From a virus (taxonomy: Duplodnaviria > Caudoviricetes), in IMG/VR virus record IMGVR_UViG_3300014208_001391, positions 1 to 33,333 of that record: DNA of 33,333 nucleotides; one strand, 5' to 3'. The position numbers and the translations under genes were made by a program. Shown piece after piece: positions 2,834 through 25,365 of this stretch (the stretch's first letter is position 1; each line of letters starts with the position of its first letter). The notes under the pieces were generated by a model. The model did no database searches and had not been told where the DNA came from. It saw only the letters and a list, made by a program, of their open reading frames with translations.

Positions 2834-2904
2834 GAAAAACAAAGAATATTTATATTAATATGTATTTTTTATTTTCTTATTCCTATATTTACAAAAAAAT
2901 TAGC

Positions 2905-3045
2905 ATGTCAAAGAAAAAAACAAAAAAAATATCAATATCAATTTCTCCAGAAGTAGAAAAAAAGTTAGCACAAGGATTTGTTAATTGTAATAAACTTATA
3001 AATCAACTTCTTAGTGAATATTTAAACAAAACAATAACAAAATAA
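2905..3045 (+). CDS. Small RHH-like DNA-binding protein, cassette 1 ORF A (46 aa)
   Basis: MSKKKTKKISISISPEVEKKL...NCNKLINQLLSEYL: an alternating beta strand plus two helices. Homologous to the ORFs at 20364 and 24056. Confidence 0.7.
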   Translation: MSKKKTKKISISISPEVEKKLAQGFVNCNKLINQLLSEYLNKTITK

Positions 3046-3097
3046 TTATGGATTTCCATAATTTTATTTTTCTACATATTTATAACAAACGAAAAAA

Positions 3098-3280
3098 ATG
3101 TATACTATGGGTAGAAAAAAAATTAACTCAAAAGAAAAAAAGAAAATACTAACAATTAACATTGAATCTGATTCATATAAAAGATTCGAAATTTTGAATA
3201 TTAAAAACAAATCTAAATTTTTTAATTGGTTACTTGAAGAACATTTTGGAATAATTAATTTTACTGAAGAATATGAATAA
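3098..3280 (+). CDS. Small RHH-like DNA-binding protein, cassette 1 ORF B (likely start 3107)
   Basis: MGRKKINSKEKKKILTINI...NKSKFFNWLLEEHF. Homologous to the ORFs at 20584 and 24260; overlaps the nuclease start. Confidence 0.75.
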   Translation: MYTMGRKKINSKEKKKILTINIESDSYKRFEILNIKNKSKFFNWLLEEHFGIINFTEEYE

Positions 3281-4142
3281 ATTCACATTTATATATGGTT
3301 TAAAAGAGATTGGTGGAGAAATAAGATATGTTGGCAAAACAAATAACCCAAAGAAAAGATTTAACGACCACATGAAAAATTACAAAAAAAGCAAATCTCA
3401 TAAAAATAGCTGGATTAAATATTGTAAAAACAATGGAATTAAAATAGAAATGGTTATTTTAGAGAAAGTTGATTGCTCAAAATGGCAACAACGTGAAATA
3501 TTTTTTATTTCTCATTTTAAAAATTTAACTAATCATAAAAAAGGAGGGGAGGGAGGGTCAACAAACATAAACACGCTAAATTATACAGATGCTTGTGAGT
3601 GGGTAAAAAAATGCAACCTAAACATAGTAAGTAGCGCTATGTGGCACAAATTACATAAAGAGAAAAAAATTCCAGATTTTTTGCCAGGAGACCCAAGAAT
3701 AACATATAAAAACTTTGGGTGGAAATCTTGGAACATATTCTTAGGAACAAATTATATTTGCAATATTATAAAACACAAAAATTATATTAAATTTGAGGAT
3801 GCTGTATCATTTGTAAGACAGTTGAGTATAAAATCATCAAGAAAATGGAATATTTGGCATGAAATAAATAAACCTAAAAATATTCCAAAGTATCCACATT
3901 CAGCATATAAAGAATGGAAGGGGTGGGAATACTTTTTGGGAACAGACCCAAAACGTTCTAATAATTATATGTCATATGAAGAATCTAAAAAATTCATAAA
4001 GAAATTTAATTTTAATAACCGCAAGCAGTTCTACAATTGGATTAGAAAAATCGAGTCTTTAGAAACAAAAGTCCCAAGATCTCCAGATAGAGTTTATGAA
4101 AATTGTGGTTGGACAAATTGGAAAGATTTTTTAGGATATTAA
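3273..4142 (+). CDS. GIY-YIG homing-type endonuclease with 3 C-terminal 'integrase repeat'-like units
   Basis: FIYGL...IRYVGKTNNPKKRF..H, catalytic E (QREIFFI), NLTN..GGEG; repeats of P..P...YK..GW..W..FLG. Confidence 0.85.
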   Translation: MNKFTFIYGLKEIGGEIRYVGKTNNPKKRFNDHMKNYKKSKSHKNSWIKYCKNNGIKIEMVILEKVDCSKWQQREIFFISHFKNLTNHKKGGEGGSTNINTLNYTDACEWVKKCNLNIVSSAMWHKLHKEKKIPDFLPGDPRITYKNFGWKSWNIFLGTNYICNIIKHKNYIKFEDAVSFVRQLSIKSSRKWNIWHEINKPKNIPKYPHSAYKEWKGWEYFLGTDPKRSNNYMSYEESKKFIKKFNFNNRKQFYNWIRKIESLETKVPRSPDRVYENCGWTNWKDFLGY

Positions 4143-4160
4143 TTTTTACATCTCTTTAAA

Positions 4161-4637
4161 TCAATAATTTTTTAGCTCATCACGCAATTTTGTCAAAACT
4201 TTTCCTAAAAGATTCTGTCCAGGCCAGTTTTTAGGATCAGTTTTCTTTGCTGCATCTTCATCTAACCCAATACCCCAAATTTTATCGTAAGGAGACGATT
4301 CTACAAATTCACCATCTTCTGCAAGCAACGCTTTATTAAGTTTTTCGTTCTGTGTAAATTTTGCCTTACAAGCAGAGAATACAACATCGAACCTAACTTT
4401 TTCCCAGAGTTCTTCCTTGTAATTTTTAACCTCTCTTCCAAGAGCCTTTATGGTTCTAGGATCAGAAGTTGACATAATCTTATTTGCTGTATCAAAATCA
4501 TGCATTAAAACAGCTTTAGACCACATCATATACTGTTCTACGTTTTGATACTTAACTCCATCAATCTCAAATTTAGATTCATGCCAATTTGAAAATGGGG
4601 ATGCTGTTTTCCAAAAAAATACATACTTTTTTTCCAT
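4161..4637 (-). CDS. NADAR (YbiA/RibX-like) family protein
   Basis: FSNW, VEQYMM.SKA, K.LGREV, KF.QN, E.SPYD.IWGIG, GQNLLGKVL..LR. Confidence 0.92.
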   Translation of the reverse strand: MEKKYVFFWKTASPFSNWHESKFEIDGVKYQNVEQYMMWSKAVLMHDFDTANKIMSTSDPRTIKALGREVKNYKEELWEKVRFDVVFSACKAKFTQNEKLNKALLAEDGEFVESSPYDKIWGIGLDEDAAKKTDPKNWPGQNLLGKVLTKLRDELKNY

Positions 4638-4643
4638 AATTCA

Positions 4644-5612
4644 TTAATTGTTTTTTTTATATTTATAAGTTCTACTACCATCTCCTGCATCATCAAACGC
4701 ATTAAAGTGTTTTGTAATTTCTTTTGCAAAAGTTTCAGATTTAACATTTGCTACGACTTTTGTTTGTGAAACATCACCAGAGTCGGGGTCAATGTCTTCA
4801 AAATAAACTACAAATTCATCTTTTAAAAACTGTTCCTTTCTTTCGTGAACAGTATGTTTGTCTCCACAACCTAAACATTTACAGTTGTTCAAATCTTTAT
4901 ACTTTTCTTCTTCTCCAACTACCAGAGGATATCCAACAAGAGTAGTGCTATATTTATCAGAACCACATTTTGGACAAAGTTTATGTAGCCTTCTGTATTC
5001 CTTTCTAAAAAGGTCCGACTGAGCTGAGATTATTTTAATATCATTTAAGATTTTTGTAGCCTCTTCACGAAAATCTTCAAACGTCAAACCTTTTGGTTTA
5101 CCATATGCCTCATATATTTGTTTTTTTGCATATTCATCGTTTGGATCTTCGAACATTTCTGGTTTTACAATATATTCGCTTGCAGAACCTTCTTGGATTT
5201 TTTCCATTGCTCTAATCATACTTGAAGAAACGTGCTCAAATCTAACATCGCAAGGAATAAAAATCATTTTTAAGTCTGGTTTTTGATCAAGCATCACTCT
5301 CAATTGATTAGTTTCATAGTTAAGATCTGCTCCGTTTCTTAAACCCCTAACTATTGTAACATTGTACCCTTCATCTTCTTTGTCTTGAACATAATCCGAT
5401 AAAAATCCAGAGAATTGCTCCACTTTTTTACCAGGCAATTGAAACCTTAAAGTTTCCAGCCTGTTAATCTTTTCATCAATTTTTTTATCTGGATTTGTAC
5501 CAATAGCAACAATAACTTCATCAAATATTGCTTCTGCTTTTTTTAAAATTTCCAAATGTCCTTTGTGGAAAGGATTAAAGCTTCCTGGATAAATTGCCAA
5601 TTTCTTTTTCAT
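4644..5612 (-). CDS. coaD: Phosphopantetheine adenylyltransferase (CoaD)-like HxGH nucleotidyltransferase with a long C-terminal extension including a Zn ribbon
   Basis: AIYPGSFNPFHKGH, IVRGLRN..D..YE, VSSSMIR; about 170 extra residues containing CPKC...CLGC. Confidence 0.75.
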   Translation of the reverse strand: MKKKLAIYPGSFNPFHKGHLEILKKAEAIFDEVIVAIGTNPDKKIDEKINRLETLRFQLPGKKVEQFSGFLSDYVQDKEDEGYNVTIVRGLRNGADLNYETNQLRVMLDQKPDLKMIFIPCDVRFEHVSSSMIRAMEKIQEGSASEYIVKPEMFEDPNDEYAKKQIYEAYGKPKGLTFEDFREEATKILNDIKIISAQSDLFRKEYRRLHKLCPKCGSDKYSTTLVGYPLVVGEEEKYKDLNNCKCLGCGDKHTVHERKEQFLKDEFVVYFEDIDPDSGDVSQTKVVANVKSETFAKEITKHFNAFDDAGDGSRTYKYKKNN

Positions 5613-5627
5613 ATTATTTTTTTAATG

Positions 5628-5954
5628 TTATGACTTTCTTTTTAATTTAATTTTTCCTCCACATACGGAACATTTGTTTTTTAACTTTTTAGCGCATTTT
5701 TCGCAAAAGTAAGTTTCATTGTGAACAGAACAATATGTCCATCTTGTCCATCCTAATTTTTTTTCTTTAATCATTTTTGTAAGCTCATCTTTTTGCTTTT
5801 CATAATTAGTCACATTCATAAACAATTCATTATTTCTCTTTCGTATTATCCCGCAACAAGAATATTCATCTTTATGCTGGATATTATCAAATTGTGACCA
5901 CCAAGCTATATTGGTTTTACATTTAAAACATTTAACGTCGTGTGTACTGCTCAT
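5628..5954 (-). CDS. Cys-rich putative zinc-binding protein
   Basis: CFKC, CC, CSVH, CEKC and CSVC motifs. Confidence 0.7.
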   Translation of the reverse strand: MSSTHDVKCFKCKTNIAWWSQFDNIQHKDEYSCCGIIRKRNNELFMNVTNYEKQKDELTKMIKEKKLGWTRWTYCSVHNETYFCEKCAKKLKNKCSVCGGKIKLKRKS

Positions 5955-5968
5955 AATTTTATTATTTA

Positions 5969-5991
5969 TACGAAAAAAATTTAAAAAAGTT
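5969..5991 (-). promoter_or_regulatory. AAC-N16-CGTA promoter (ECF-like)
   Basis: Plus strand tacg at 5969-5972, 16 nt, then gtt at 5989-5991, just upstream of the 5954 start. Confidence 0.7.
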
Positions 5992-6031
5992 TTTTTTACA
6001 TATTTATGTAATACAATAATACAAAAAAAAT

Positions 6032-6916
6032 ATGAAAAATCAAAAAAATGATGTAATTAAATTTGCCAAAGACTTTGCAGTTGCTCTTAATCCTTATACA
6101 AATGTGTTTCAAAAAATTGAATTGTATGATTATCAAAAAAAATTATTAAAAACTTTTGAAAAAGAAAAATATACAATTATAAAACAAAGCAGACAGGTTG
6201 GAATCGATTTAACTGCCGCAATATATATTGCTTATTATATAATGAAAAACTCAAAAAAAACAATTCTTGTAATATCTGAAAATTTTGATGGTTCAGTAAA
6301 TTTTTTAGAAAAAGTAAGAAAAATTCTGCTTCATGCTACAGAAAATTTATATATAGATTCCAAAGAGAACATTTCCATAAACAATTTGAAAAAAATTGAA
6401 CTTAATAATGGAAGCAAAGTTTTTGCATTACCAGCAAATGAAAATTCATTGAGAGGAATTGATCATGTAGATTTGTTATTTATAAATAATTTAGAATACA
6501 TTAAAAATGCTAATGATATTTGGGCGTCTTTAGGAATTCCTTTGTGTATGACAAACGGGAAAGCAATTCTTTCATCAACACCAAAATACAAAAAAGAATT
6601 TTTTCATTCATTGTGGACAAATGCTATAAAAAAAGAAAATGGTTTTAAACCCATAAATGTTTCCTGGAATCAAAATCCACATTTTGGCAATGAATGGTAT
6701 GAGAAAATGTGCAGAAATTTTAATTATGACAAAAACACAATAAAAACTGAATTGGATGGAAAGTTTATTTCAAGAAAAGATAAAAAGAAAAAATCAGCAA
6801 TAAATATAAGAGTTGACCAAGAAGATAAACAAAGAATTTTAGATAGGATGAAACAAAAAAAAATAAGCTCCATAACAGATTATATCATAGAGCTTATTAA
6901 TAACGATTTAAAATAA
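6032..6916 (+). CDS. Terminase large-subunit ATPase-like protein (degenerate) with a C-terminal RHH-like tail and no nuclease domain
   Basis: LYDYQ Q-motif, KQSRQVGID (Walker A-like), NGSKV, SLRG, LLFINN (Walker B DE replaced by NN), ILSSTP; tail KSAINIRVDQEDK...SITDYIIELI. Confidence 0.75.
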   Translation: MKNQKNDVIKFAKDFAVALNPYTNVFQKIELYDYQKKLLKTFEKEKYTIIKQSRQVGIDLTAAIYIAYYIMKNSKKTILVISENFDGSVNFLEKVRKILLHATENLYIDSKENISINNLKKIELNNGSKVFALPANENSLRGIDHVDLLFINNLEYIKNANDIWASLGIPLCMTNGKAILSSTPKYKKEFFHSLWTNAIKKENGFKPINVSWNQNPHFGNEWYEKMCRNFNYDKNTIKTELDGKFISRKDKKKKSAINIRVDQEDKQRILDRMKQKKISSITDYIIELINNDLK

Positions 6917-6972
6917 AAAAATTTTATCATATTTATAATAAACCCATCCTCCTGGGTAAAAACTTTATAATT

Positions 6973-8073
6973 ATGAAAACTACCTATATTTACGGATTAT
7001 ATGTAACAGAAAACAACATAAGATATGTTGGAAAAACTAACAATCTTAACAAACGACTGTATGAACATGTTCTAAATTCTAAACATAAGAAGACACACAA
7101 AGATATTTGGATACAAAAAGAGCTACGTAATGGAAATGAAATAAAAATTATTTTATTAGAAGAAGTGTCTTGTGAAAAATGGCAAGATGCAGAAATAAAA
7201 TATATTGAAAAATATAAAAACAACAAATTAACCAATCACGCTAAGGGTGGAATTGGAGGAAGGTTGGAGTTTTATAAAATTAGTTATGATAAAGCTAAAA
7301 TATGGGTAAAAGAAAATTTAGTTTGCAAATCGGGTAACGAATGGGATAAATTAAATAAAAAAAATAAAATACCAAACTTCGTTCCAAAAAGCCCATATGA
7401 GCACTACAAAAATAAAGGATGGATAAGTTGGGGAGATTTTCTTGGAACCAATAAAAGTCAAGATAATCTACTTGCTCTTATTTATATTTCTTATGAAAAT
7501 GCAAAAAAAATTATAAGAAATTTAAACATAAGAACTCAAAAGGAATGGAAAAACTTGGCACAAGGAAACAACATCCCAAAAGAAATTCCAAACAGACCTG
7601 AAAGATATTACAAAAAAAGAGGGTGGATATCATGGGGAGATTTCCTAGGTACAAATAGAATATCAAATAAAAACAAAAAGTTTATTTCTTATAAAGAAAC
7701 AATTTTGTGGTTAAAAAACAACAATATATCTTTAAATTCTATAGAAGATTGGAGACATTTTTACAAAAATTTAAAGCCACAATTTATCCCCTCAAATCCA
7801 GACAAAGAATACAAAAACAAAGGATGGGAAAGTTGGGGTGTTTTTTTAGGAACAAACAAAATTTCAGATAATTTAAAACACAAAAACTATATGAGCTTTG
7901 ATGATGCTGTTAATTTTGCAAGGAAACTAAACATAAAATCAATGCGTGAATGGAAAATATGGCATTTAAAAAATTTTCCAGAGAACATTCCATTAAACCC
8001 AGATTTGAGTTATAAAAAATTTTGGAAAGGATCTTCATATTTTTTAGGAAAAAGTTCTAAATACTATAGATGA
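6973..8073 (+). CDS. GIY-YIG homing-type endonuclease with 4 'integrase repeat'-like units
   Basis: YIYGL..NIRYVGKTNNLNKRLYEH, AEIKYI, LTNHAKGG; repeated YKNKGWISWGDFLGT. Paralog of 3273-4142. Confidence 0.87.
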   Translation: MKTTYIYGLYVTENNIRYVGKTNNLNKRLYEHVLNSKHKKTHKDIWIQKELRNGNEIKIILLEEVSCEKWQDAEIKYIEKYKNNKLTNHAKGGIGGRLEFYKISYDKAKIWVKENLVCKSGNEWDKLNKKNKIPNFVPKSPYEHYKNKGWISWGDFLGTNKSQDNLLALIYISYENAKKIIRNLNIRTQKEWKNLAQGNNIPKEIPNRPERYYKKRGWISWGDFLGTNRISNKNKKFISYKETILWLKNNNISLNSIEDWRHFYKNLKPQFIPSNPDKEYKNKGWESWGVFLGTNKISDNLKHKNYMSFDDAVNFARKLNIKSMREWKIWHLKNFPENIPLNPDLSYKKFWKGSSYFLGKSSKYYR

Positions 8074-8164
8074 ATTAAAAGATTGCCAAAAAACTTTACT
8101 CAAAGACCATATATAAAATATAAAAACAAAAGATGAGTAAATGTTAAAGATTTTTTGAAAAACT

Positions 8165-8192
8165 AAAAAAAGGCTTTTAAGAGCCTTTTTTT
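8165..8192. terminator. Bidirectional terminator overlapping the clpP stop
   Basis: aaaaaaaggct-tttaag-agccttttttt. Confidence 0.65.
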
Positions 8193-8851
8193 ACTAAAAC
8201 AGTGTCAATTAAGCCATATTTCTTTGCTTCTTCGGCAGACATAAAATAATCCCTATCGCAATCTTTTTCTATTTGCTTAAAAGTTTTTCCTGTTTTTTCT
8301 GCTAATAAATCATACAAAGAATTTCTCACTTTTTTTGCTTCTTCAATTTGTATAGACATTTCTGTGAAATCTCCTTCTAAACCACCTGATATTTGATGTA
8401 TCATAGTTCTAGAACGTTTTAAAGCCCTTCGCTTTTCTTTCTCTCCACATGCCAATATTACCGCAGCCATAGAAGCACATGTTCCCATGTTAACCGTAGA
8501 AACTGATGCAGTAATCATTTCCATTACATCTATGATGGAATTTCCACCACTGACACTACCTCCGCCACTATTAATATAAATATTTATATCACTCTCGGAA
8601 TTAACCGAATCTAAAAATAACATTTGGGCACATAATACATTTGCGAACTCATCTGTAATTGGCATTCCAAGAATAAGAATTCTATCTTGCATAAGTCTAT
8701 CAAAAACAGACATTATGGCCATATTTTTAGTTGCTTCTAAAACAACATTTGGAGTCATTGAAACAGTTTTCATTGCACCCTCATAACGATGCAGCGACAT
8801 GCTACTAATACGCCTATGCTTAATAGCATATTTTTCAAATTCATTTTTCAT
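8177..8851 (-). CDS. clpP: ATP-dependent Clp protease proteolytic subunit
   Basis: YINSGGGSV, CASMAA (Ser), MIHQ (His), DRDYFMSAEEAKKYGLID (Asp); Bacteroidetes-like N-terminus (EFEKYA.KH). Confidence 0.95.
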   Translation of the reverse strand: MKNEFEKYAIKHRRISSMSLHRYEGAMKTVSMTPNVVLEATKNMAIMSVFDRLMQDRILILGMPITDEFANVLCAQMLFLDSVNSESDINIYINSGGGSVSGGNSIIDVMEMITASVSTVNMGTCASMAAVILACGEKEKRRALKRSRTMIHQISGGLEGDFTEMSIQIEEAKKVRNSLYDLLAEKTGKTFKQIEKDCDRDYFMSAEEAKKYGLIDTVLVKKGS

Positions 8852-8894
8852 TTTGCTTAATTTTAATTTAGTGATTGTTTTAAATTTTTTATTA

Positions 8895-9470
8895 TCATAA
8901 ATCTATTCTTCTTTTTTCTATGCCCATAAGATTATACAAACTAAAATAAGCGAAGCTTTCTCCACACAATTCAATATCGTTTATAATTTCATTTTTTTCA
9001 ACATCATCTGTTTTCCACTTTTCACTTCTTATTTTTTTAGTTAATTCTGTAAAAAACAACGCTGGAAAAGTTGCCATACTTTTATTATTAGACATATCCA
9101 TAATAAATTCAACCATATTTTGAGCGAATGTTTCATTTTTTAATTTTTCAAGAACAATTTTACCTTTCTTTGTTTTTAAAACTCTACACAAGCATTTTGG
9201 AACAGAGGTAATTATTTGAACACAGTTAGTAACAATAACAATTGTTTTTTTATATTCATCAAAATTAGAAACCTTTTCCACATAAGACAACGATTCCACA
9301 AATGATAATTTATTTTCTGGGAATGTTTCTGAAAAATCATAATTTCCCCCATAATAAACATCATTATTGCCATTTGGAATTATAATTCTCATGATTTTAT
9401 CATTAAATAATCTTTTGGATAGTTTAATGTCTTCTTCAGACAACTTAAAGTTTGAATCTATTGTTTTCAT
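8895..9470 (-). CDS. Hypothetical protein
   Basis: 191-aa ORF with an ATGA overlap with the upstream gene. Confidence 0.7.
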   Translation of the reverse strand: MKTIDSNFKLSEEDIKLSKRLFNDKIMRIIIPNGNNDVYYGGNYDFSETFPENKLSFVESLSYVEKVSNFDEYKKTIVIVTNCVQIITSVPKCLCRVLKTKKGKIVLEKLKNETFAQNMVEFIMDMSNNKSMATFPALFFTELTKKIRSEKWKTDDVEKNEIINDIELCGESFAYFSLYNLMGIEKRRIDL

Positions 9471-10483
9471 AATCCCATTTCTTCTTGTATAATTAATTCT
9501 TTTCCTATTGTGTTTAAATCCTGAATTTTTAGTGGCTCCTTATTAAAGTCTTCTTCAAATTCACCTTTCAACCTCTTTGCTTGAACTCTTAATTTTTCCT
9601 GGATTTCATATTTTTTAACCAATGACAATTTTTTGTTTAGATCGGAATCAATAGCTTTTTTTATTGCATCTAATTTTAACTTAGATTCTCTTATGGTTTT
9701 AAGAACACTTTTTGTCTCTTCTAGACTGTGATGATACACATAAATGTTGGGAAAAATTTCAGTTGTTTTTTCCAATTTTTGGTATTCGCAATGTGGATAG
9801 AAAGGAGGATATGGTCTAGCTGTTGATTCGTGGAAAATAAATACGTTTTCTGGATTCTTAATTAAATCTTCATACAGTGTTGGATTAACGTTTTTAATAA
9901 TATCTGTAAATGGAACATTAATGTCTCCACTATAAACCACGAACAAATCTTCTCCTCCTTTTCTAAAGTTAAAAACAAAACCCCCAGATGCATAATCTTT
10001 ATAATGAAAACCAGTAGTTTCTATTTTATGAACTATCATATTAAGATCTTCATATACAATTCCTGAGTTTGAATTTATAGAAAAACTGTTATCAAGTGGT
10101 CCATCATGTCCACAAACATCCTTTAAATACATTTCTATTTTCGGCTTTAAAGAAGGAACACATTCTATTTTTACAGTTTGTTTTTGTGCAAAATATTTAT
10201 GATAAACTAAAGTAGAAAGACTTCCAATATGATCTTCGTGACAGTGGGTTATAAAAACGTAATCTAAACTTTCAACCAATTTTTTTGTTTGTAATTCAGA
10301 ATATACAGTAGACCCACAATCAATCAATATTGTTCCTTTTGAAGTTTTTATAATAGCACTTGAGTTTTTTTCGGCTAGGTCAAAAGCGCCACCAGTTCCC
10401 AAAAAGTTTATTTCGACTATTGGTGATTTTCCAGTGTTTTTGAGTAGAGAGTTTAACCTAGATTTTAATATAAACTTAGCCAT
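9467..10483 (-). CDS. Metallo-beta-lactamase-fold hydrolase (RNase Z/Apyc1-like)
   Basis: FLGTGGAF, LIDCG, THCHEDHIG, YSGD, FHE, PHC. Confidence 0.85.
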   Translation of the reverse strand: MAKFILKSRLNSLLKNTGKSPIVEINFLGTGGAFDLAEKNSSAIIKTSKGTILIDCGSTVYSELQTKKLVESLDYVFITHCHEDHIGSLSTLVYHKYFAQKQTVKIECVPSLKPKIEMYLKDVCGHDGPLDNSFSINSNSGIVYEDLNMIVHKIETTGFHYKDYASGGFVFNFRKGGEDLFVVYSGDINVPFTDIIKNVNPTLYEDLIKNPENVFIFHESTARPYPPFYPHCEYQKLEKTTEIFPNIYVYHHSLEETKSVLKTIRESKLKLDAIKKAIDSDLNKKLSLVKKYEIQEKLRVQAKRLKGEFEEDFNKEPLKIQDLNTIGKELIIQEEMGL

Positions 10484-10502
10484 TATATATTTTTGTATAT
10501 TG

Positions 10503-10525
10503 TACGGAATAAATTATTTTTTGTT
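10503..10525 (-). promoter_or_regulatory. AAC-N16-CGTA promoter
   Basis: tacg at 10503-10506, N16, gtt at 10523-10525. Confidence 0.7.
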
Positions 10526-10529
10526 ACAC

Positions 10530-17016: not shown

Positions 17017-17030
17017 ATTGTTTTTTAAAA

Positions 17031-17681: not shown

Positions 17682-17692
17682 AACATTTATTT

Positions 17693-17911
17693 TTATTTAT
17701 TTAATTTCCCCATTAAGTTTCCGTGAGAATTACAAAAAACACCTTCGTTACCATAATTATACATGGCTAAATTTTCACTACTTCCTTTAATAAACTCCAC
17801 TAAAATACACCACAATATTCCTTCATCTGTCCAGTTCATTTGTACAATTTTTTTAACTCCCCAACTTTTATTATCAATTACATTAAAAACTTCAATTTCA
17901 GGTTGCTGCAT
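17693..17911 (-). CDS. Hypothetical protein
   Basis: 72-aa ORF packed between dnaJ and pncA. Confidence 0.65.
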   Translation of the reverse strand: MQQPEIEVFNVIDNKSWGVKKIVQMNWTDEGILWCILVEFIKGSSENLAMYNYGNEGVFCNSHGNLMGKLNK

Positions 17912-17916
17912 AAAAA

Positions 17917-18987
17917 TTATTTTTTAGATTTGAAACTATCTGATTCTTTAATTTTTTCTAAAATTTCCTTTTCTTCATCTGAAACCTTAGATGGTATAAA
18001 TACAATTACATCAAGATAAAAATCTCCTCTGTAATTTGTACCCATTTTATACAACCCCTTTTCTTTGATTCTTAATCTTTGTCCACTCTGAGTACCTGGC
18101 GGAATCACAACTCTGGCAACACCACCTTCAATTGTTTTTACTTCTATTTCCTTTCCAAATATTGCTTCATATATTGTTATATCAATTTTAGAAAACAATT
18201 CAGATTCTTGTCTATTGATATCTTTATTTATTTCTTCTTCTATTAAAACAAGTAGATTTCCGTTTGGCCCACCATCTCTTGAAACATTTCCACCAAAAGC
18301 AAGAGATAAAACATCTCCGTTTTTAACACTTCTTGGAATTGTCAATTCAACAACTTCATCTTGAATTGTAACTTTTCTTCCAGAACATGATGGACAGGTT
18401 TTTCTAATTATTTTTCCACTTCCGCCACAATTTTGACATTGTTCTTGAGATATAACTGTTCCAACAATAGTGTTTTTAACTTTCTGTACCCAACCAGATC
18501 CTTGACATGTTGTACAAGTTTCTACGGAAGATTCACTGGCACCACCGCTTCCATTACAAGTAGTACAAATTATTTCTTTTTTGTATTTTACCTTCTTTGC
18601 AATTCCAGTAAATATTTCTTCTAAAGTTAATGAAACCTTAATTCTCAAATCAGAACCAACGTGTTTTTGTGGTCTTGCTTGGTTCCAATTTCCCCTGTGA
18701 CCTCCAAAAAACTGATTAAATATATCATCCACATTAAAACCTCCAAAACCACCTGGTGGAAATCCGTGATTTTCAAATCCTCCTTGATCATATTTTCTTC
18801 TCTTTTCTTCGTCTCCAATAACACTATAAGCTTCTGCAACCTCTTTAAAAGAAGCTTCTGCTTCTGGGTTGTCTGGGTTTTTATCTGGGTGATATTTCAG
18901 AGCAAGTTTCCTGTATGCTTTCTTTATTTCATCTAAAGAAGCGGCCTTTGGAACTCCTAAAATTTCGTAATAATCTTTTCTTGCCAT
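17917..18987 (-). CDS. dnaJ: Chaperone DnaJ
   Basis: J domain with HPD, G/F region, four CxxCxGxG-type repeats and a C-terminal domain. Confidence 0.97.
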
Positions 18988-18988
18988 T

Positions 18989-19204
18989 TTATATTAATTT
19001 CAAATCTTCTTGCCATAAAGTTGGTTGAACGTCGTGCTTTTTAAAGTAAACCGTAGCACAAGGAACTCCATCTTTATCTTTTTTAACATCAACTACAACT
19101 CCTTTTTCTCCAGTGGTAACTTCTTCTATTGGATAAGGATAATCAATCATTTTCCCAATAAATTTCACATTATCACCCGCTTTTATTTTTGTTCTTTTTG
19201 ACAT
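18989..19204 (-). CDS. Small SH3-barrel-like hypothetical protein
   Basis: [27 protein letters not shown] pattern. Confidence 0.65.
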
Positions 19205-19227
19205 AATTTTTATCTTTCACTAATTTA

Positions 19228-19250
19228 TACGGAAATAGTACAAAAAAGTT
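19228..19250 (-). promoter_or_regulatory. AAC-N16-CGTA promoter
   Basis: tacg at 19228-19231, N16, gtt at 19248-19250. Confidence 0.7.
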
Positions 19251-19255
19251 ATATT

Positions 19256-19282
19256 AAAAAACCCCAGCTTAAACTGAGGTTT
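19256..19282 (-). terminator. Intrinsic terminator overlapping the stop of the 20210 gene
   Basis: Minus strand aacctcag-tttaag-ctggggtt followed by a T run. Confidence 0.6.
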
Positions 19283-20210
19283 CTTTTTTTTCTTCTGACG
19301 CAGAAGGTTGTGTCGGTGGAATATAAACCCTAACTTCTTCTGTCATCGATTTCATTTTTAAATATACTTGCGCTAACGCCACAACATCTTTTTCACAATA
19401 TTTTACTATTTTATTTAAATCTTTTTCTTTGTAAAAAACATTTTTAACATCAGCTCCAGAAATTTCATCTTTTGATGAGGGAACATTGAAAATTTCACAT
19501 AACAAATCTAAAGATGTGGAATTATCAAATACATTATAACTCCAAACAGATTTTGTATCTATTATAACATCATTTAAATCCCAAGACTTTAAATGAGAGA
19601 CATCAAACATCTTCGGTGGTTTAATTTCATTAATAATCATTCTTTTAGAAATAACAGGTAAATCAAAGACAGAAATGTTGTGCCCAACAAGAGCCCAAAA
19701 ATCTTCCCTGTTTTTATCAAATTTTCCAGGAATTTTATTTAAAATTGGTCCAAGTTTTGGATGATTTACAAAATCCAATAAAAGTTTTTTTTCATCTTCA
19801 CCATAAAAAGACAATATTTTAATATTATAAAAACTATCATTTTCATTGTTTTTCCATAAGACACCACAACTTATACACAATATTTTATTCCATTCACAAT
19901 GAATTGGACCTTTTGTATCATATAATTCTTGTGCAATGTCGTTTTTTACATTTTCTATTATTTTTTCAGGAGTTAAAATGTTTTTTTTCTTTTTAGTTGC
20001 TTTTTTTGTTTCTTCACTATCGTTTACATTTTCACTATCAAACACTTTTAAAACTGAAAGTTTATTTTGGATTTGCATTTCAATATCTTTTTTAAATCTG
20101 TTTTTAAAAAGATCTTGTTGATGCTTTGTTAATTCCGAAAACGTTTCTTTTTGCGAAGTTGTTTCTATGTCAATAAATAACAACTTATTTAAAGATTTTT
20201 GATCTAACAT
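19269..20210 (-). CDS. PolB-exonuclease-like 3'-5' exonuclease (stand-alone DEDDy)
   Basis: FIDIET, VGHNISVFDLP, IDTK..W, SLDLL, YCEKDV; Lys-rich insertion near the N-terminus. Confidence 0.88.
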   Translation of the reverse strand: MLDQKSLNKLLFIDIETTSQKETFSELTKHQQDLFKNRFKKDIEMQIQNKLSVLKVFDSENVNDSEETKKATKKKKNILTPEKIIENVKNDIAQELYDTKGPIHCEWNKILCISCGVLWKNNENDSFYNIKILSFYGEDEKKLLLDFVNHPKLGPILNKIPGKFDKNREDFWALVGHNISVFDLPVISKRMIINEIKPPKMFDVSHLKSWDLNDVIIDTKSVWSYNVFDNSTSLDLLCEIFNVPSSKDEISGADVKNVFYKEKDLNKIVKYCEKDVVALAQVYLKMKSMTEEVRVYIPPTQPSASEEKKETSV

Positions 20211-20239
20211 AATAACTAAGGTTTAAATTAATAATTTTA

Positions 20240-20270
20240 CAAAGATACAACTTTTTTTTGATAACTCAAA
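20240..20270 (-). promoter_or_regulatory. Bacteroidota housekeeping-type promoter TTTG-N19-TATCTTTG
   Basis: Plus strand caaagata at 20240-20247 and caaa at 20267-20270. Confidence 0.7.
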
Positions 20271-20363
20271 ATTTTATTGGTTTATTTTTTAAGTTAAAAG
20301 TTACAACAAAAAAGAATTTTGATTTTTAAACTTCTTTTACTATATTTATTAGAAATTAAGATC

Positions 20364-20504
20364 ATGAAAAGAAACAAACCAAAAATAAACATTTGTATTT
20401 CTCCAGAAATTGCAGAAAAATTAGAAAAATATAAAATAAACAAATCTAAGTTAGTTGACTCATTATTAACAGATTATTTTAAAAAAGAAGAAAAGGTGTT
20501 GTGA
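20364..20504 (+). CDS. Small RHH-like protein, cassette 2 ORF A (46 aa)
   Basis: MKRNKPKINICISPEIAEKL...NKSKLVDSLLTDYF; ATATTTAT at 20342. Confidence 0.72.
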   Translation: MKRNKPKINICISPEIAEKLEKYKINKSKLVDSLLTDYFKKEEKVL

Positions 20505-20583
20505 AACATATAAATAAAAATTAAGATTAGTCTTAATTTTATTTTTCTACATATTTATAGTAAACAATTAAATATTATAAATT

Positions 20584-20748
20584 ATGGCACGTAGAAAAAT
20601 TAACCCAGAAAACAAAAAACAACATCTCTCTGTTGTTGTTTCTCCAGAAAATTTTAACAAATTAAAAGATTTAGATTTAAACGAATCTAAATTCATTAAT
20701 TGGCTATTGGAAGAATATTTTTGTAAATTAGAAAGTGGAGGAAAATAA
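20584..20748 (+). CDS. Small RHH-like protein, cassette 2 ORF B (54 aa; not in ORF track)
   Basis: MARRKINPENKKQHLSVVVSPENFNKLKDLDLNESKFINWLLEEYFCKLESGGK. Confidence 0.75.
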   Translation: MARRKINPENKKQHLSVVVSPENFNKLKDLDLNESKFINWLLEEYFCKLESGGK

Positions 20749-20750
20749 TT

Positions 20751-21683
20751 GTGAAAAAATTAACAACAGAAGAATTTATAAGAAAAGCTAAAAAAAAACA
20801 TGGAGAAAAATATGATTATTCTTTAGTAAATTATAAAAAATCATCAGAACCAATTTGTATTACTTGTAAAATACATGGTAAATTTATGCAAACTCCTAAT
20901 GATCACTTAAACGGTTGTGGGTGTAAGTTTTGTGGATACAAATCTATTAAAGAAAAAAATTGTGATTCTTTAAAAAAATTCATAAATAAATCTAATAAAA
21001 TACACAATGGAAAGTATGATTATTCATTAGTAAATTATGAAAACAACCATGTAAAAATAAAAATTATTTGTAATATTCATGGAGTATTTTACCAGGTTCC
21101 AAATAGTCATTTAGTTGGTCGTGGATGCCCAAAATGTGCAGATATAGAAAGAACTATTAAAAATTCTTTTTCTACAAAAGATTTTATAAAAATAGCAGAA
21201 TCAGTTCATGGGAACAAATATGATTATTCACAAGTTGATTATAAAAATGCACTCACAAAGGTTAAAATAATATGTAAAAAACACGGGGAGTTTTTATCTA
21301 CACCCGCTAACCACACCCATAAAACATCACCAACTGGATGCCCATTTTGTAATACTTCAAAGGGAGAATTAAAAATAAAATATTTTTTAGAAGAAAAAAA
21401 CATAAAATACATTCAACAAAAAACTTTTAAAGACTGTAAAATAACAAAATCTCTACCTTTCGATTTCTATTTACCTGATTATAACTTATGCATAGAATAT
21501 GATGGAATACAACATTTTAAACCGATTAAGATATTTGGTGGATTAAAAAAATTAGAATACACACAGAAATCAGACAAAATAAAAACGGAATATTGTAAAT
21601 TAAACAATATTCCATTAATAAGAATTTCGTATAAAGAAAATGTAGAAAAATCTCTAAACAATATTTTTATTTATAACATTTGA
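20751..21683 (+). CDS. Putative homing endonuclease: 3 DUF723-like Zn repeats plus a Vsr/DUF559-like PD-(D/E)xK domain
   Basis: Three copies of FI.KA...HG.KYDYS.V.Y...I.C..HG.F...P..H..G.GC..C; SKGE, LPFDFYLPDYNLCIEYDGIQH, D..K..YC...IPLIRI. Confidence 0.85.
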   Translation: MKKLTTEEFIRKAKKKHGEKYDYSLVNYKKSSEPICITCKIHGKFMQTPNDHLNGCGCKFCGYKSIKEKNCDSLKKFINKSNKIHNGKYDYSLVNYENNHVKIKIICNIHGVFYQVPNSHLVGRGCPKCADIERTIKNSFSTKDFIKIAESVHGNKYDYSQVDYKNALTKVKIICKKHGEFLSTPANHTHKTSPTGCPFCNTSKGELKIKYFLEEKNIKYIQQKTFKDCKITKSLPFDFYLPDYNLCIEYDGIQHFKPIKIFGGLKKLEYTQKSDKIKTEYCKLNNIPLIRISYKENVEKSLNNIFIYNI

Positions 21684-21694
21684 TAGAAAATATT

Positions 21695-22756
21695 TTAAAT
21701 ATGACAATCGTAAAGACTTAACATTGTATCATCAGGAATTTCATCGAGAAGTTTTTTAAATTCAAGATTCCAATCTTTTGGGTCTTTTTCATTTGAAACA
21801 CATGCCCACCATCCCATTTCTCCTTTTTCATACCATTTACCATCTTTTAATACAGCAAATGTGGTAATAGAAGCATGGCGATTAAGATACTGTTCTTTTG
21901 TTTCTGGAATAAAAACATCACGGCTTCCACTTATGTTATATAACCCAAACTCAAAATAAGCTTTATTAGCGGCTTCCTCTGGATTCTTTTTATAAAGATC
22001 ATCAAACTCTTCATATGATTTAATTGCTTTTTCAAGGTTTTCTTCATACATTGCATCAAAATCAATGTGTTTTTTAAGTGCTTGATCTGTAGTCCCAATT
22101 TCTGCACGTTTCGAAGAAACAAGACTTGGGTTTCCAACCACACCTTTAGCACCAGGTTTTAATCTAAAAAATCCAGTCCAGCGCCCACCAAGCTGATACC
22201 AATCCCATTTTGCGTTTTCGTTTGAATAATAACCATACTTTCCTCTTATTTTTTTATATCCATTATATTCTTCAGCATATTTTGCAAGAGTTTTGTATTT
22301 TTTATTTACAGGAATATTTTTTGGATGTGCAATTCTTTCAACTTTCACTTTTCCTTCAAAACAAACATCTGGATCTGGATGTTCTGTTTGAACAATTTCA
22401 ACAACCTTAAGCCAACAAGATTTTTTCATCCTTTCTCTTTTTTCTGGTTGAGTGAAATAGCATCTATAGCATCTACCTTTTGTAAAATAATTACCGAATT
22501 GAATTTTTCCAACAACGTATTCAAACTTATCACCAATCTTTGTTTTAGAAAGTTTTTTATACATATCTTCTGTGATTTCCATTCCCCAACTACTTCCTGA
22601 AGAACAATAAAACTCACTTGTTTTTTTTGTTTTATACTCCTTCTCAAGCTCTTTTGTTTTATCAACAAACTTCATATACTTTTTATCCTGTTCACAATAT
22701 GGAGCAAGTTGCTCTTCTGGATTATCTCCCAAAACTAAAACGGTAAAATGTGACAT
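21695..22756 (-). CDS. Conserved hypothetical phage protein
   Basis: MSHFTVLV start, NAKWDWYQLGGRW, DGKWYEKGEMGWW and a C-terminal DCHI. Confidence 0.8.
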   Translation of the reverse strand: MSHFTVLVLGDNPEEQLAPYCEQDKKYMKFVDKTKELEKEYKTKKTSEFYCSSGSSWGMEITEDMYKKLSKTKIGDKFEYVVGKIQFGNYFTKGRCYRCYFTQPEKRERMKKSCWLKVVEIVQTEHPDPDVCFEGKVKVERIAHPKNIPVNKKYKTLAKYAEEYNGYKKIRGKYGYYSNENAKWDWYQLGGRWTGFFRLKPGAKGVVGNPSLVSSKRAEIGTTDQALKKHIDFDAMYEENLEKAIKSYEEFDDLYKKNPEEAANKAYFEFGLYNISGSRDVFIPETKEQYLNRHASITTFAVLKDGKWYEKGEMGWWACVSNEKDPKDWNLEFKKLLDEIPDDTMLSLYDCHI

Positions 22757-22791
22757 AATTTTTATTTTTAAATTTAAATTTTTCTTATCTA

Positions 22792-22814
22792 TACGAAAAA
22801 AAAGTAATTTAGTT
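22792..22814 (-). promoter_or_regulatory. AAC-N16-CGTA promoter
   Basis: tacg at 22792-22795, N16, gtt at 22812-22814. Confidence 0.7.
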
Positions 22815-23377
22815 TACAAATTACACAAGTTTTTTAATATAATGGCTGTCATTTTTGCATCATCCACACCTCTATGTTGAGTTCCTTCAAATTCAACTCC
22901 CATTTTCTTCAACGCAGTTGAAACACCTGGAGATTGTTTTAATCCATATTTAAAAGCATACCATTCTTTAAGATTAAAATGTGTTCTTCCAAATGGATAT
23001 TTTATTTTTTTTAAAGCGCATTCTTTTTCAAGTGCCACTCTATCATAATCACCCCAGCTAAACCACATTCTTCTATTAGATTGGAAATCGTTTGTCAATA
23101 TTTCACAAGCTTCTTTGAATGAAACTCCATTTTCAGCAACGTATTCAGGAGTAAGAGTTGTTAATTCAGTGCAAAATTTGCTTATCTCAGAATATTCAGG
23201 TTTAACTATAATACTTCTTGAAACAATAGTTTCTTTTGTAAAATAATCAACACAGGCTATTCCAATTTCAATAATTTCTTTGTATTGTCCACTTGGCGGA
23301 TTCCCATACCAGCAGCATGCTTCAAGATCTATAACAAGCGCAAAGCTGTTAATCTTTTCTTTTCTCATTTTTATCAA
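22814..23377 (-). CDS. DEDDh 3'-5' exonuclease (ERI1/KapD-like)
   Basis: VIDLEA.CW, EIIEIG, FCTELT, SWGDYD, FEGTQHRGVDDA. Confidence 0.9.
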   Translation of the reverse strand: MIKMRKEKINSFALVIDLEACCWYGNPPSGQYKEIIEIGIACVDYFTKETIVSRSIIVKPEYSEISKFCTELTTLTPEYVAENGVSFKEACEILTNDFQSNRRMWFSWGDYDRVALEKECALKKIKYPFGRTHFNLKEWYAFKYGLKQSPGVSTALKKMGVEFEGTQHRGVDDAKMTAIILKNLCNL

Positions 23378-23936
23378 TTTTTATATATTTAGGAGGAACC
23401 GCATTTGTTAAATAAACATCATTATCTGTTTTGTAAAACTTATATCCCTCATTATGCATTTGTTTTGCTTCAATTATTAACAACACCGCTTCAACACCCT
23501 TTTCGTGTCTAGAGCCAGTGTTTTTGGCCTTTTCAATGTTTTCTTGTGAATACAAATGAACATGATATCTGTTCATTTTTTTCAACCCATCTTTCATAAT
23601 TGAAGATAAAAACCTATTTGCTGTTCCATGATACAATTTGAAAGGTGGAACTATAGGTTTTAATTGTAAATCAACTTCAACAGAATGACCTTGATTGGCC
23701 ATAATTTTCTTTTCATCTTCACTGAACTTAAACCTTTGTTTATCGGAAGTTTTTACAACTTGTCTCAAATCTTCAATAGTAAACTCTATTTTATCCTGTG
23801 AGTTTTTTATTATTAAATCCACATCTGCCCACCCATTTTTGTCTAATTTAATTCCTATTGATTCTGGATGATGCCTTAACACATAAGATAGATGTTTGCT
23901 AATTTTTGTTATTTTTTCTTTATAAATCGGTGTCAT
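23349..23936 (-). CDS. kptA: NAD-dependent RNA 2'-phosphotransferase (Tpt1/KptA)
   Basis: SKHLSYVLRH, GWA, DKQRF, ANQGHS, LYHGT, GLKKMNR.HVHL. Confidence 0.92.
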   Translation of the reverse strand: MTPIYKEKITKISKHLSYVLRHHPESIGIKLDKNGWADVDLIIKNSQDKIEFTIEDLRQVVKTSDKQRFKFSEDEKKIMANQGHSVEVDLQLKPIVPPFKLYHGTANRFLSSIMKDGLKKMNRYHVHLYSQENIEKAKNTGSRHEKGVEAVLLIIEAKQMHNEGYKFYKTDNDVYLTNAVPPKYIKIDKNEKRKD

Positions 23937-23960
23937 AATAAAATTCTACTTTGATAGTTG

Positions 23961-23992
23961 CAAAAATAAAAAATAAAAATCACATATCCAAA
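23961..23992 (-). promoter_or_regulatory. Bacteroidota housekeeping-type promoter TTTG-N20-TATTTTTG
   Basis: Plus strand caaaaata at 23961-23968 and caaa at 23989-23992. Confidence 0.65.
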
Positions 23993-24055
23993 CTTATTTT
24001 ACATTAAATTTGAATTCCCGTAACATTTTTTATATATTTATGAGAAACAATTATT

Positions 24056-24211
24056 ATGGAAAAAAAAGAAACAAAAAGACTAGAAATAGTCATCACACCT
24101 GAAGTGTCAAAAAAATTAAATGAAGGGAATTACAATAAAAACAAATTGATTATAAACCTTTTAAAAAATTATTTGTTAAAAAATGTTAAAAAAGATAAGG
24201 TTTTGCCTTAA
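24056..24211 (+). CDS. Small RHH-like protein, cassette 3 ORF A (51 aa; not in ORF track)
   Basis: MEKKETKRLEIVITPEVSKKLNEGNYNKNKLIINLLKNYLLKNVKKDKVLP; ATATTTAT at 24034. Confidence 0.72.
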   Translation: MEKKETKRLEIVITPEVSKKLNEGNYNKNKLIINLLKNYLLKNVKKDKVLP

Positions 24212-24259
24212 TTTTATTTTTTTCACCTATTTATAAGAAACAATTAAAACTTATAAATT

Positions 24260-24427
24260 ATGGGACGTAAAAAATTAACACCTGAAGAAAAAAAGCAAGT
24301 CTTAACCATTCATCTTCCAAAAGACCTTTTTGACAAATTTGAAGAATTAAATATTGAAAACAAATCTAAGTTCTTTAACTGGCTGTTGGAAGAGCATTTT
24401 AGCTTAATTGAGAAAAGGAGGGTATAA
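24260..24427 (+). CDS. Small RHH-like protein, cassette 3 ORF B (55 aa; not in ORF track)
   Basis: MGRKKLTPEEKKQVLTIHLPKDLFDKFEELNIENKSKFFNWLLEEHFSLIEKRRV; TAATG coupling to the nuclease. Confidence 0.78.
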   Translation: MGRKKLTPEEKKQVLTIHLPKDLFDKFEELNIENKSKFFNWLLEEHFSLIEKRRV

Positions 24428-25365
24428 TGGCTAAAAGATTAACAACCGAAGATTTCATAAAAAAAGCTAAGGAAATTCATGGAGATAAATACGATTATTC
24501 TTCTACTAATTATGTTAATTGCTACACAAAAGTTAACATCACATGCTTAATTCATGGAGATTTTAAAATTTCACCCGACAATCACATTCATAACAAGCAA
24601 GGTTGTGCAAAATGTTATTATAAAAAAAACAGTGAATTTCACAGTTGGAGTTATGAAGATTTTGTCAAAAAAGCAAAAGAAGTTCATGGGAACACATATG
24701 ATTATTCATTAACTAAATTTAAATCTACAAGAGAAAAAATACAAATTATATGCAAAAAACACGGAGAATTCAATTCGCTTCCATCAGACCACATTCACAA
24801 AAAAAGCGGATGCCCAAAATGTGCTTATAAAAAATGTTCAAACAGATTAAAAAGCACAACAGATGATTTTATTTTAAAAGCAGAAAAAACACACAGAAAT
24901 AGATATGATTATTCGTTAGTTAATTATGTCAATAGCACAACAAAAATAACCATAATATGTCCTGTTCATGGAAAGTTTTTACAAACTCCAGATGCACATT
25001 TAAGTGGAAAAAATTGTCCACACTGTAATCTTTCAAAAGGAGAATTAAAAATAAAAGGAATATTAGAAAGCAACAACATTCAATTTAAACAACAAAAAAC
25101 TTTTAAAGAATGCAAAGATATTAGATTACTTCCATTTGATTTTTATTTACCTGAGTATAATTTGTGCATAGAATATGATGGTGAACAACATTATAAACCA
25201 ATTAAGGTATTTAAAGGAGAATTTGGATTAAAAGAAATTCAAAGAAGAGATTTTATAAAAACAGAATATTGTAAAAACAACAATATTCCATTATTAAGAA
25301 TTTCTTATAATGAAAATATAAAAAATTCTTTATTAAATTATTTAAAAACTTTTAACATTATATAA
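24427..25365 (+). CDS. Putative homing endonuclease: 3 DUF723-like Zn repeats plus a Vsr/DUF559-like domain
   Basis: Paralog of 20751-21683; LPFDFYLPEYNLCIEYDGEQH. Confidence 0.85.
   Translation: MAKRLTTEDFIKKAKEIHGDKYDYSSTNYVNCYTKVNITCLIHGDFKISPDNHIHNKQGCAKCYYKKNSEFHSWSYEDFVKKAKEVHGNTYDYSLTKFKSTREKIQIICKKHGEFNSLPSDHIHKKSGCPKCAYKKCSNRLKSTTDDFILKAEKTHRNRYDYSLVNYVNSTTKITIICPVHGKFLQTPDAHLSGKNCPHCNLSKGELKIKGILESNNIQFKQQKTFKECKDIRLLPFDFYLPEYNLCIEYDGEQHYKPIKVFKGEFGLKEIQRRDFIKTEYCKNNNIPLLRISYNENIKNSLLNYLKTFNII

Follow-up and report, generated by a model that had tools for sequence, protein, structure and literature searches.

We analysed a viral contig of 33,333 bases with about 29% GC (record IMGVR_UViG_3300014208_001391; this whole stretch is called the window below), in which a small cassette of three genes occurs three times on the plus strand. 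Each cassette consists of two short open reading frames (ORFs), A and B, with a nuclease gene behind them. A first-pass annotation had placed the units at 2905-4142, 20364-21683 and 24056-25365, and A, B and the nuclease were each located there. In copy 1, ORF A1 of 46 amino acids (aa; 2905-3045) and ORF B1 of 57 aa with an N-terminal MGRKK arm (3107-3280) precede a GIY-YIG endonuclease of 289 aa with C-terminal repeats (3273-4142), which is convergent with gene 4161-4637, presumably NADAR-like. Copy 2 comprises A2 of 46 aa (20364-20504), B2 of 54 aa (20584-20748) and an endonuclease of 310 aa with Zn repeats (DUF723/DUF4379) and a Vsr-like domain (20751-21683), convergent with gene 21695-22756. 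In copy 3, A3 of 51 aa (24056-24211) and B3 of 55 aa (24260-24427) are followed by another Zn-repeat and Vsr-like endonuclease of 312 aa (24427-25365), the stop codon of which overlaps the convergent gene 25358-25885. The junction of B with the nuclease is an overlap or abutment throughout, at -8, +2 and -1 nucleotides (nt) in copies 1, 2 and 3, respectively. The labels NADAR, KptA, ClpP, arginine decarboxylase and exonuclease given to neighbouring genes are presumed from our own reading of the sequences, with no search result behind them, and the nucleotidyltransferase label was taken from an annotated match.

The front modules of the three copies align with a mean column identity of 74% and the alignment diverges at the nuclease start, which bears out the earlier observation that homologous fronts precede nucleases that are not homologous. 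B of copy 3 is nearer to that of copy 1 (58% identity) than to that of copy 2 (44%), as had also been pointed out, while copies 1 and 2 share 37%. The GIY-YIG assignment for copy 1 holds (PF01541, E 1e-7). For the integrase-type repeats proposed for it, no Pfam INT_rpt match was found in the window nucleases; such a match is present in a homologue of a window nuclease carried by cassette L170 (Pfam E 1.5e-5). For copies 2 and 3, the nucleases of which are 53% identical, the Zn repeats were recovered and the proposed DUF559 relationship found no Pfam match. Both have a C-terminal domain with PFDFY...EYDGxxH, a motif read by eye on which the label Vsr-like depends. No solved relative of the copy 3 nuclease was found by sequence.

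The first-pass annotation had taken A and B to be ribbon-helix-helix (RHH) proteins. Profile matches, Pfam CcdA matches and structural matches agree on this fold, with modest scores as expected for 50 residues. The sequences have an N-terminal strand of alternating hydrophobic residues followed by two helices, as in RHH proteins. Five sequences of the PDB were matched by the B profile, with CopG at E 0.0065 and CcdA and NikR also among them, while the sole match of the A profile was CopG and weak (E 0.26). Pfam CcdA matched 18 of 134 B homologues, and A2 itself matched CcdA (E 1e-4) and RHH_3 (E 4e-3). A and B are paralogues (hhalign 98.3%), B being distinguished by a conserved MGRKK arm and a WLL motif that are both absent from A. 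AlphaFold2 models of A and B showed an extended N-terminus and two helices (pLDDT 84 for A3 and 84.5 for B3), with the strand unformed in the monomers. The top structural matches of the B model were nearly all RHH proteins, including NikR (Z 4.5, rmsd 1.9, 46 residues aligned), ORF56, TacA, CopASO, AmrZ and Arc, with Z from 3.5 to 4.7 and all below 5. Both proteins are bare RHH domains of 46-57 aa without a long C-terminal tail. Over 20 disjoint pairs, dN/dS was 0.12 for A and 0.16 for B, ratios that are biased downward by the preselection of pairs at 75% protein identity or more; by this comparison A and B are under purifying selection. Prediction of an A/B complex gave a score of 0.41 against 0.01 for the best control, with at least 95% of contacts agreeing between runs and a partner pLDDT of at least 68; among 157 solved pairs 116 attained this mark, against 2 of 215 mismatched pairs, and those that attained it with a score of 0.60 or less were 18 solved pairs and both mismatches. 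The prediction lends weak support to an A/B heterodimer, and the score may reflect resemblance to solved RHH homodimers.

The shared front of the cassettes, called the head below, is 370-480 base pairs (bp) long and contains, in order, a predicted outward host-type promoter, A, a terminator-like hairpin, a predicted late-type promoter and B. The box ATATTTAT had been put forward as specific to these cassettes. It occurs 20 times in the window against 7.8 expected, but before A, B and other genes, and TATTTA[TC] stands upstream of 220 of 1110 ORFs in five related contigs. We rejected it as an element-specific end motif since it is a general box before many genes; it is probably a late promoter box of the phage. 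The predicted boxes of A lie at 2885-2892 (ATATTTAC, with a second box at 2846-2853), 20342-20349 and 24034-24041, all on the plus strand. Of 84 A promoters, 34 have TTGA[CT] ahead of the box, as do 15 of 220 others, which suggests that the A promoters form a different timing class. The conservation reported for the spacer between A and B is largely explained by a terminator-like hairpin and the general promoter. A hairpin of variable sequence is followed by TTTTA[CT]TTTT (50 of 95 heads versus 10 of 220 other promoters) and then by the promoter box, and hairpins with z < -2 precede 36 of 95 B promoters as compared with 14 of 100 others. Within the window, a hairpin, a U-run and then the promoter box together occupy 3044-3083 (z -2.6; late-type box 3076-3083), 20517-20558 (z -2.9; box 20551-20558) and 24192-24234 (a weaker hairpin, z -1.7; box 24227-24234). 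We read the spacer as a predicted terminator for A combined with a promoter for B and the nuclease.

Upstream of A, the box TAnnTTTG points outward in 52 of 95 heads compared with 9.2 in shuffled sequences, while inward boxes (12) are as frequent as in shuffles (12.7). TAnnTTTG is the Bacteroidota promoter consensus according to the accessible part of PMC6847099. Since the outward boxes fit this consensus, the host of the window phage likely belongs to the Bacteroidota. The predicted outward -7 boxes of the window, all on the minus strand, are at 2803-2810 (about 30 nt before the ATG at 2772 of a small minus-strand gene), 20240-20247 (30 nt before gene 19269-20210, which we take to be exonuclease-like) and 23961-23968 (before a presumably KptA-like gene). 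For copy 2, no such box is found at the same place in two relatives of the window phage, G001 and G013. At their other ends, 55 of 63 cassettes are convergent with the next gene, 34 of these overlapping it, and the gene upstream is divergent in 58 of 79.

Scans of viral and metagenome contigs recovered 112 distinct RHH groups, of which 99 are A-B pairs, 7 are A alone and 6 are B alone; four of the lone A copies sit at the edge of a contig, two represent deletions and the last is a longer fusion. Phage and metagenome contigs were the sole source of the A-B family. A tblastn search of GenBank phage records with two B proteins (E up to 1), insensitive for such short queries, returned no A/B relative, and none of 38 pattern matches in GTDB genome contigs was confirmed as A/B by a short-query search that is likewise insensitive. 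After leaving out 7 of the 99 pairs that are cut by contig ends, the gene behind the head could be tabulated for 92, and it is directly a nuclease in 82, so that A/B homologues are linked to nucleases elsewhere, as the first-pass annotation implied. These are 32 HNH, 16 GIY-YIG, 15 Vsr-like, 10 TnsA-like (one fused to B), 6 TnpB or TnpB-like and 3 LAGLIDADG nucleases, with motifs as the basis for the HNH class and for three of the TnpB-like cargoes, whose Pfam matches were weak or absent. We take these classes to represent five unrelated catalytic folds. Matches to GIY-YIG, LAGLIDADG, NUMOD and DUF723 occur among the cargoes outside introns and inteins, in proteins with a nuclease domain and DNA-binding repeats. 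The other 10 cargoes are one with nuclease-associated repeats on a cut contig, eight with an extra small gene and one that is unrelated. As a nuclease-like ORF comes next in five of the eight (read from its first 45 residues), which are all the cases with enough sequence, we rejected the notion of a non-nuclease cargo as an exception.

It might be argued that A and B serve the phage, as regulators of adjacent operons or as antitoxin mimics against host defence, with the nucleases hitch-hiking on the late promoter. Purifying selection on both proteins, the CcdA-like Pfam matches, the back-to-back arrangement of the A promoter with a host-type promoter and the eight cassettes with a non-nuclease gene directly after B would all fit, and the option was raised for moraphages in the part of PMC12619734 available to us. 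Still, A-B hardly ever occurs without a nuclease after it, its position and copy number vary among relatives (2 to 13 RHH matches per contig), remnants decay jointly with the nuclease, and the proteins have no long C-terminal tail. We regard this explanation as improbable. A and B also belong to a wider pattern. Six contigs contained 55 nuclease matches, of which 18 had A-B, 1 had B alone, 12 had a single coupled small gene and 24 had none; the 12 coupled genes encode 48-61 aa of other lineages, 8 with weak RHH-type Pfam matches. Coupling of an RHH gene to a nuclease is a common design among these phages, with A-B as one of its lineages.

We examined which part of the cassette moves. Heads that are 88-97% identical in DNA stand before unrelated nucleases at unrelated loci. 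Examples are L018 (HNH) and L020 (Vsr-like) at 94% (SH-aLRT 99), L196 (HNH) and L164 (Vsr-like) at 94%, L055 (GIY-YIG) and L142 (HNH) at 88%, and L072 (TnpB-like) and L080 (TnsA-like) at 89%. Sharing of DNA in such pairs is limited to the stretch that begins 56-127 nt before A, usually just past the outward promoter box, and ends no more than about 33 nt from the B stop codon. On a tree of A and B, cargo class changes 36 times over 87 labelled tips, 5 unlabelled tips being excluded, where the minimum is 5. In sequencing run X1, a second contig of similar depth shares 20602-20757 with the window at 137 of 156 bases and then diverges, which is consistent with another similar head in the same sample.

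These head pairs bear on the proposal that the proteins form a type II toxin-antitoxin-like module in which B or A binds and neutralises the nuclease. B is indeed translationally coupled to the nuclease, and the structural matches include N-domains of RHH antitoxins. Proteins that are 89-96% identical nevertheless occur in heads before nucleases of unrelated folds, so that one binding surface is unlikely to fit all of them, and the co-evolution of a cognate toxin-antitoxin pair is not what near-identical heads with unrelated nucleases display. In addition, the RHH domain fills almost the whole protein and many related nucleases have no partner. We consider such a module very unlikely, and the earlier suggestion that the small proteins neutralise or target the nuclease by protein contact is unlikely to apply across five unrelated folds.

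The nuclease, on the other hand, follows the site. Where cassettes have a common convergent neighbour, 17 of 19 pairs and 10 of 12 groups agree in nuclease class, against a background of 22%, and 10,000 shuffles gave a mean of 2.4 groups and a maximum of 8. The heads of such site-mates are often far apart, ranking as low as 76th or 83rd of 91 in similarity to one another. L169 and L174 have a related nuclease at the same site, and the head of L169 groups with that of window copy 3 while the head of L174 groups with copy 1, the latter branch having a support of 48. A lone GIY-YIG gene of the window (6973-8073) and A-B cassette L170 are mutual close matches (41%), both convergent on a gene that we take to be ClpP-like. 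Members of these nuclease lineages are also found without A-B, either behind one small gene of another kind or with no small gene at all (TnpB 64%, TnsA-like 53%, LAGLIDADG 53%). Since the nuclease class follows the convergent neighbour and the head does not, the head looks like the swapped part. The nucleases likely behave as site-bound, free-standing homing endonucleases whose heads are gained, lost or replaced, and recombination between heads would be the simplest route of exchange because heads are mutually homologous.

The first-pass annotation had instead drawn a self-contained mobile element, in which A-B inserts at new sites and picks up interchangeable nucleases. The discordance between head and nuclease on which that model relied stands, and so do near-identical heads with sharp ends at unrelated loci, a constant end at the B stop codon and up to 7 copies per genome. 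What was not borne out is the nuclease as exchangeable cargo, since its class tracks the neighbouring gene rather than the head and the same lineages exist without A-B. Inverted repeats in the window cassettes are scattered and AT-rich, with none common to the three copies, and no transposase or recombinase was found, either inside these cassettes or among 97 scanned cargo genes that directly follow B, where we take TnpB not to be a transposase and the TnsA-like matches to be nuclease domains. We think this model unlikely. By the features tested, the cassettes are neither an insertion sequence (IS) element nor a toxin-antitoxin pair.

A further possibility would make A and B accessory proteins that bend DNA or help in targeting, in aid of the nuclease or of the repair step; RHH relaxosome proteins such as TraY and TrwA have a role of this kind in conjugation. 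In its favour, B is fused to the nuclease in L071 and a B-like domain is part of a fusion in P0078. The nucleases have DNA-binding repeats of their own, and the head changes while the site stays, so that the head cannot specify the site. This role is, in our judgement, highly improbable.

The occurrence of the cassettes is patchy and mobile, as the first-pass annotation supposed. G001 and G013 lack A-B at all three sites of the window, G013 having a lone Vsr-like nuclease at site 1. In total, seven A-B cassettes were counted in G001. The genes that flank L155 are 67 bp apart in three other contigs, which provides precise empty alleles. In L154 and L160, at the same site, an antisense cassette splits a nucleotidyltransferase near residue 240, the second half having acquired a new start codon; the window has the unbroken gene, again a precise empty allele. 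Two copies, L049 and L059, are remnants with internal deletions. Among 80 NADAR-like loci, mostly distant homologues, one had A-B within 3 kb and none had A-B converging on the gene, and contig joints in runs X1 and X2, with short sides, showed no empty allele. This pattern of invasion and decay fits free-standing homing endonucleases as they are portrayed in the accessible part of PMC2988022. The annotation had named unlinked A/B homologues, the lack of a predicted RHH fold and the lack of empty alleles as outcomes that would speak against it; what we found were linked nucleases, RHH folds and empty alleles.

We propose that the cassettes are free-standing, site-bound homing endonucleases behind an exchangeable head of two RHH genes that are likely repressors, a reading that we hold to be probable with appreciable room for doubt. 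By analogy with other RHH proteins, repression by A and B is likely and remains putative. During co-infection, the nuclease would cleave the DNA of a cassette-free phage within or close to the convergent neighbour gene, and repair of the break would copy the cassette, as in intronless homing. The head would make the antisense insertion tolerable, its outward host-type promoter restarting the interrupted gene run. A would be expressed from its own promoter and then terminated, whereas B and the translationally coupled nuclease would be expressed from the late-type promoter. B may repress its own promoter, giving negative feedback on nuclease dose, and A may act on the back-to-back promoter region or tune B, possibly as an A/B heterodimer. 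Being homologous repeats, the heads could be swapped by recombination or gene conversion from the outward promoter to the B stop codon.

Several observations weigh against this proposal. With fuller labelling, 39 class changes were counted against a shuffled mean of 54.5, so that head and cargo are not independent and there is signal as well as exchange; the nearest head has the same cargo class in 48 of 92 cases, and the class differs in 2 of the 12 site groups. The cargo of L088 looks chimeric, which makes its pair weak, and mis-joining at shared heads is possible in metagenomic contigs. The motif-based classes and the preselected dN/dS pairs mentioned above count here too. As 24 of the 55 nucleases have no coupled small gene, the head is not required, and in L130 the cargo is not a nuclease. 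The three window sites in G001 and G013 are imprecise empty sites where the flanking genes differ too, and no homologue of the convergent gene of copy 3 (25358-25885) was found in G001, G013 or viral contigs. Of 95 heads, 43 have no outward box, and the cassette-free relatives already possess a similar box at the place of copy 3, so that cassettes also insert next to promoters that are already there. The palindromes of the spacer may act as operators instead of terminators. Lastly, Foldseek with the B monomer returned nothing at E 0.001 and weak TCP-domain rows alone.

Other members of the family show unusual arrangements. The B profile search returned 126 representatives at 50% clustering. 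A top match of 1795 aa, P0001, was rejected as a repeat artefact. In P0078 the B-like domain is fused to a longer domain that we read as T5orf172-like, and at L071:5001-6263 B is fused in frame to the TnsA-like nuclease. Two B-like genes on opposite strands occur at L177:4219-5479, where the minus-strand gene lies inside the span of the plus-strand nuclease ORF and is therefore possibly spurious. TnpB-like proteins of 500-524 aa lie behind A-B at L063:1132-2637, L072:1094-2668, L121:2635-4149 and L123:5357-5944, three of them without a Pfam match, and RuvC-like motifs were seen in them by eye. No CRISPR-like array was found behind four TnpB or TnpB-like cargoes, L072 included. An intergenic repeat of 57 nt is present in five copies at L072:2927-5108, spaced 330-666 nt and in some cases followed by a hairpin; it is probably a repeated early promoter-terminator unit. 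The extra gene between B and the nuclease in L078, L083, L086, L094, L114 and L139 encodes a protein of 124-147 aa that has an acidic stretch and, at its C-terminus, a cluster of Cys residues, and that possibly has a winged-helix fold according to weak ESM Atlas leads; a second extra family at this position, of 180-187 aa, was seen in L102 and L104. A GC-rich hairpin lies between converging stop codons in the region L154:4404-6600 and in L160. In the region L150:5793-6030, a short 5' nucleotidyltransferase fragment is found to the right of the cassette and an intact copy to the left, the fragment being possibly a co-conversion remnant.

The genes of the window are syntenic with G001 and G013 (229 kb and 91 kb) at about 40-84% protein identity, and cassette-bearing relatives reach 290-372 kb. 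Contigs of run X1, a possible source of the window, are identical to it over 1500-9500 and 20602-26268 with zero differences. No Rfam family was found in the window. A sigma factor of the phage is encoded at 830-1723. The gene at 6032-6916 (plus strand) encodes a putative terminase-like ATPase fragment, by our own reading, with a C-terminal NikA-like RHH domain (Pfam E 0.003). Its homologues in G001 and G013 are at the same position (50-54% identity), and it is therefore a fixed gene and not a cassette. The lone GIY-YIG endonuclease at 6973-8073 (plus strand) has its own promoter box and is absent from G001 and G013, where the flanking genes abut. A protein of 1204 aa at 26974-30588 (minus strand) combines N-terminal nuclease-type DNA-binding repeats with a helicase and a methyltransferase domain, and its homologues are the divergent upstream neighbours of A-B cassettes L018, L118, L129, L164, L170 and L176. 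The C-terminal part of an IS605-type TnpB lies at 32721-33188 (minus strand), close to the contig end.

Small RHH repressors are familiar in other settings. The mnt and arc genes of P22 are divergent, whereas A and B, of the same fold and size, are in tandem. CopG exerts autorepression over a coupled downstream gene. CopG of pMV158 (PDB 1b01, 2cpg), the best sequence match, and the N-domain of CcdA have the RHH fold and size of A and B, but the cassettes have no replication protein and no CcdB toxin. Closer comparisons are offered by phages and insertion sequences. The moraphages, in the portion of PMC12619734 available, are large Bacteroidota phages with multiple pairs of a CcdA/HicB-like gene and a putative PacI-like homing endonuclease, and regulation is suggested there as a function. 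They resemble the cassette phages in being large and aquatic, with predicted Bacteroidota hosts, several copies per genome and a CcdA-like gene beside a homing endonuclease. Size, habitat type, a DnaJ-like gene and the host-type promoter of the cassette phages are compatible with that group as described there. The paragraph on these genes, compared by description alone, does not speak of a tandem pair, of promoters, of a variety of nucleases, of exchanged heads or of empty sites. Arc of IS605, as far as the consulted text of the preprint 10.64898/2026.09.24.754181 goes, represses and binds tnpB promoters, and Arc homologues are noted there beside homing endonuclease genes. Like the head, it presents an RHH gene of about 50 aa and a bidirectional promoter next to a homing-type nuclease. 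It is, though, a single RHH gene divergent from tnpB inside an insertion sequence with TnpA, whereas A and B are tandem paralogues co-oriented with the nuclease, without TnpA, and with mostly protein-guided nucleases of five folds. In our six TnpB cassettes, A and B are co-oriented with TnpB and no tnpA was recognised among the neighbours.

The free-standing seg and mob endonucleases of T4-like phages, in what we have of PMC2988022, are intergenic, target the neighbouring gene, use late promoters and translational coupling, provide replacement promoters for displaced host genes and are tightly down-regulated. The A-B cassettes would be alike in each of these respects, except that they are mostly antisense to their neighbours. 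The T4-like cases described there are controlled through the choice of promoter, through RNA hairpins or terminators, or by a nuclease that represses itself, with no separate repressor genes. Taking these analogies together, the cassettes likely work by Arc- or CopG-like autoregulation imposed on a T4-style free-standing endonuclease. The pairing of an RHH or CcdA-like gene with a phage homing nuclease is already briefly in print (PMC12619734; 10.64898/2026.09.24.754181, both as partly available), and since this basic pairing is known the surprise is limited. Neither a tandem twin-RHH head nor the exchange of heads between site-bound nucleases came up in the literature searched, and PMC7824862 makes no mention of ribbon-helix, RHH, MetJ, homing or TnpB.

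Huge phages carry many selfish nucleases, and the control that protects a phage genome from its own nucleases is known mainly from T4, where it involves RNA structure and self-repression. The A-B family points to another solution, a compact and separable repressor-promoter unit that is placed before nucleases of any fold and moves between them. The family is directly testable, since nature provides pairs in which one head stands before different nucleases and pairs in which one site has different heads, and it supplies many small RHH-promoter pairs with varied recognition strands. Going further, and tentatively, with somewhat less than even confidence, the head may be a non-autonomous, second-order mobile regulatory cassette. 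It would spread by ectopic gene conversion at nuclease breaks, and its two repressors, possibly as a heterodimer, would form an early/late switch that tames a nuclease of any fold, TnpB included, and repairs the transcription of the interrupted operon. If this is true, the head would be a plug-in controller for selfish genes, which would explain how huge phages tolerate many antisense nucleases and split genes.

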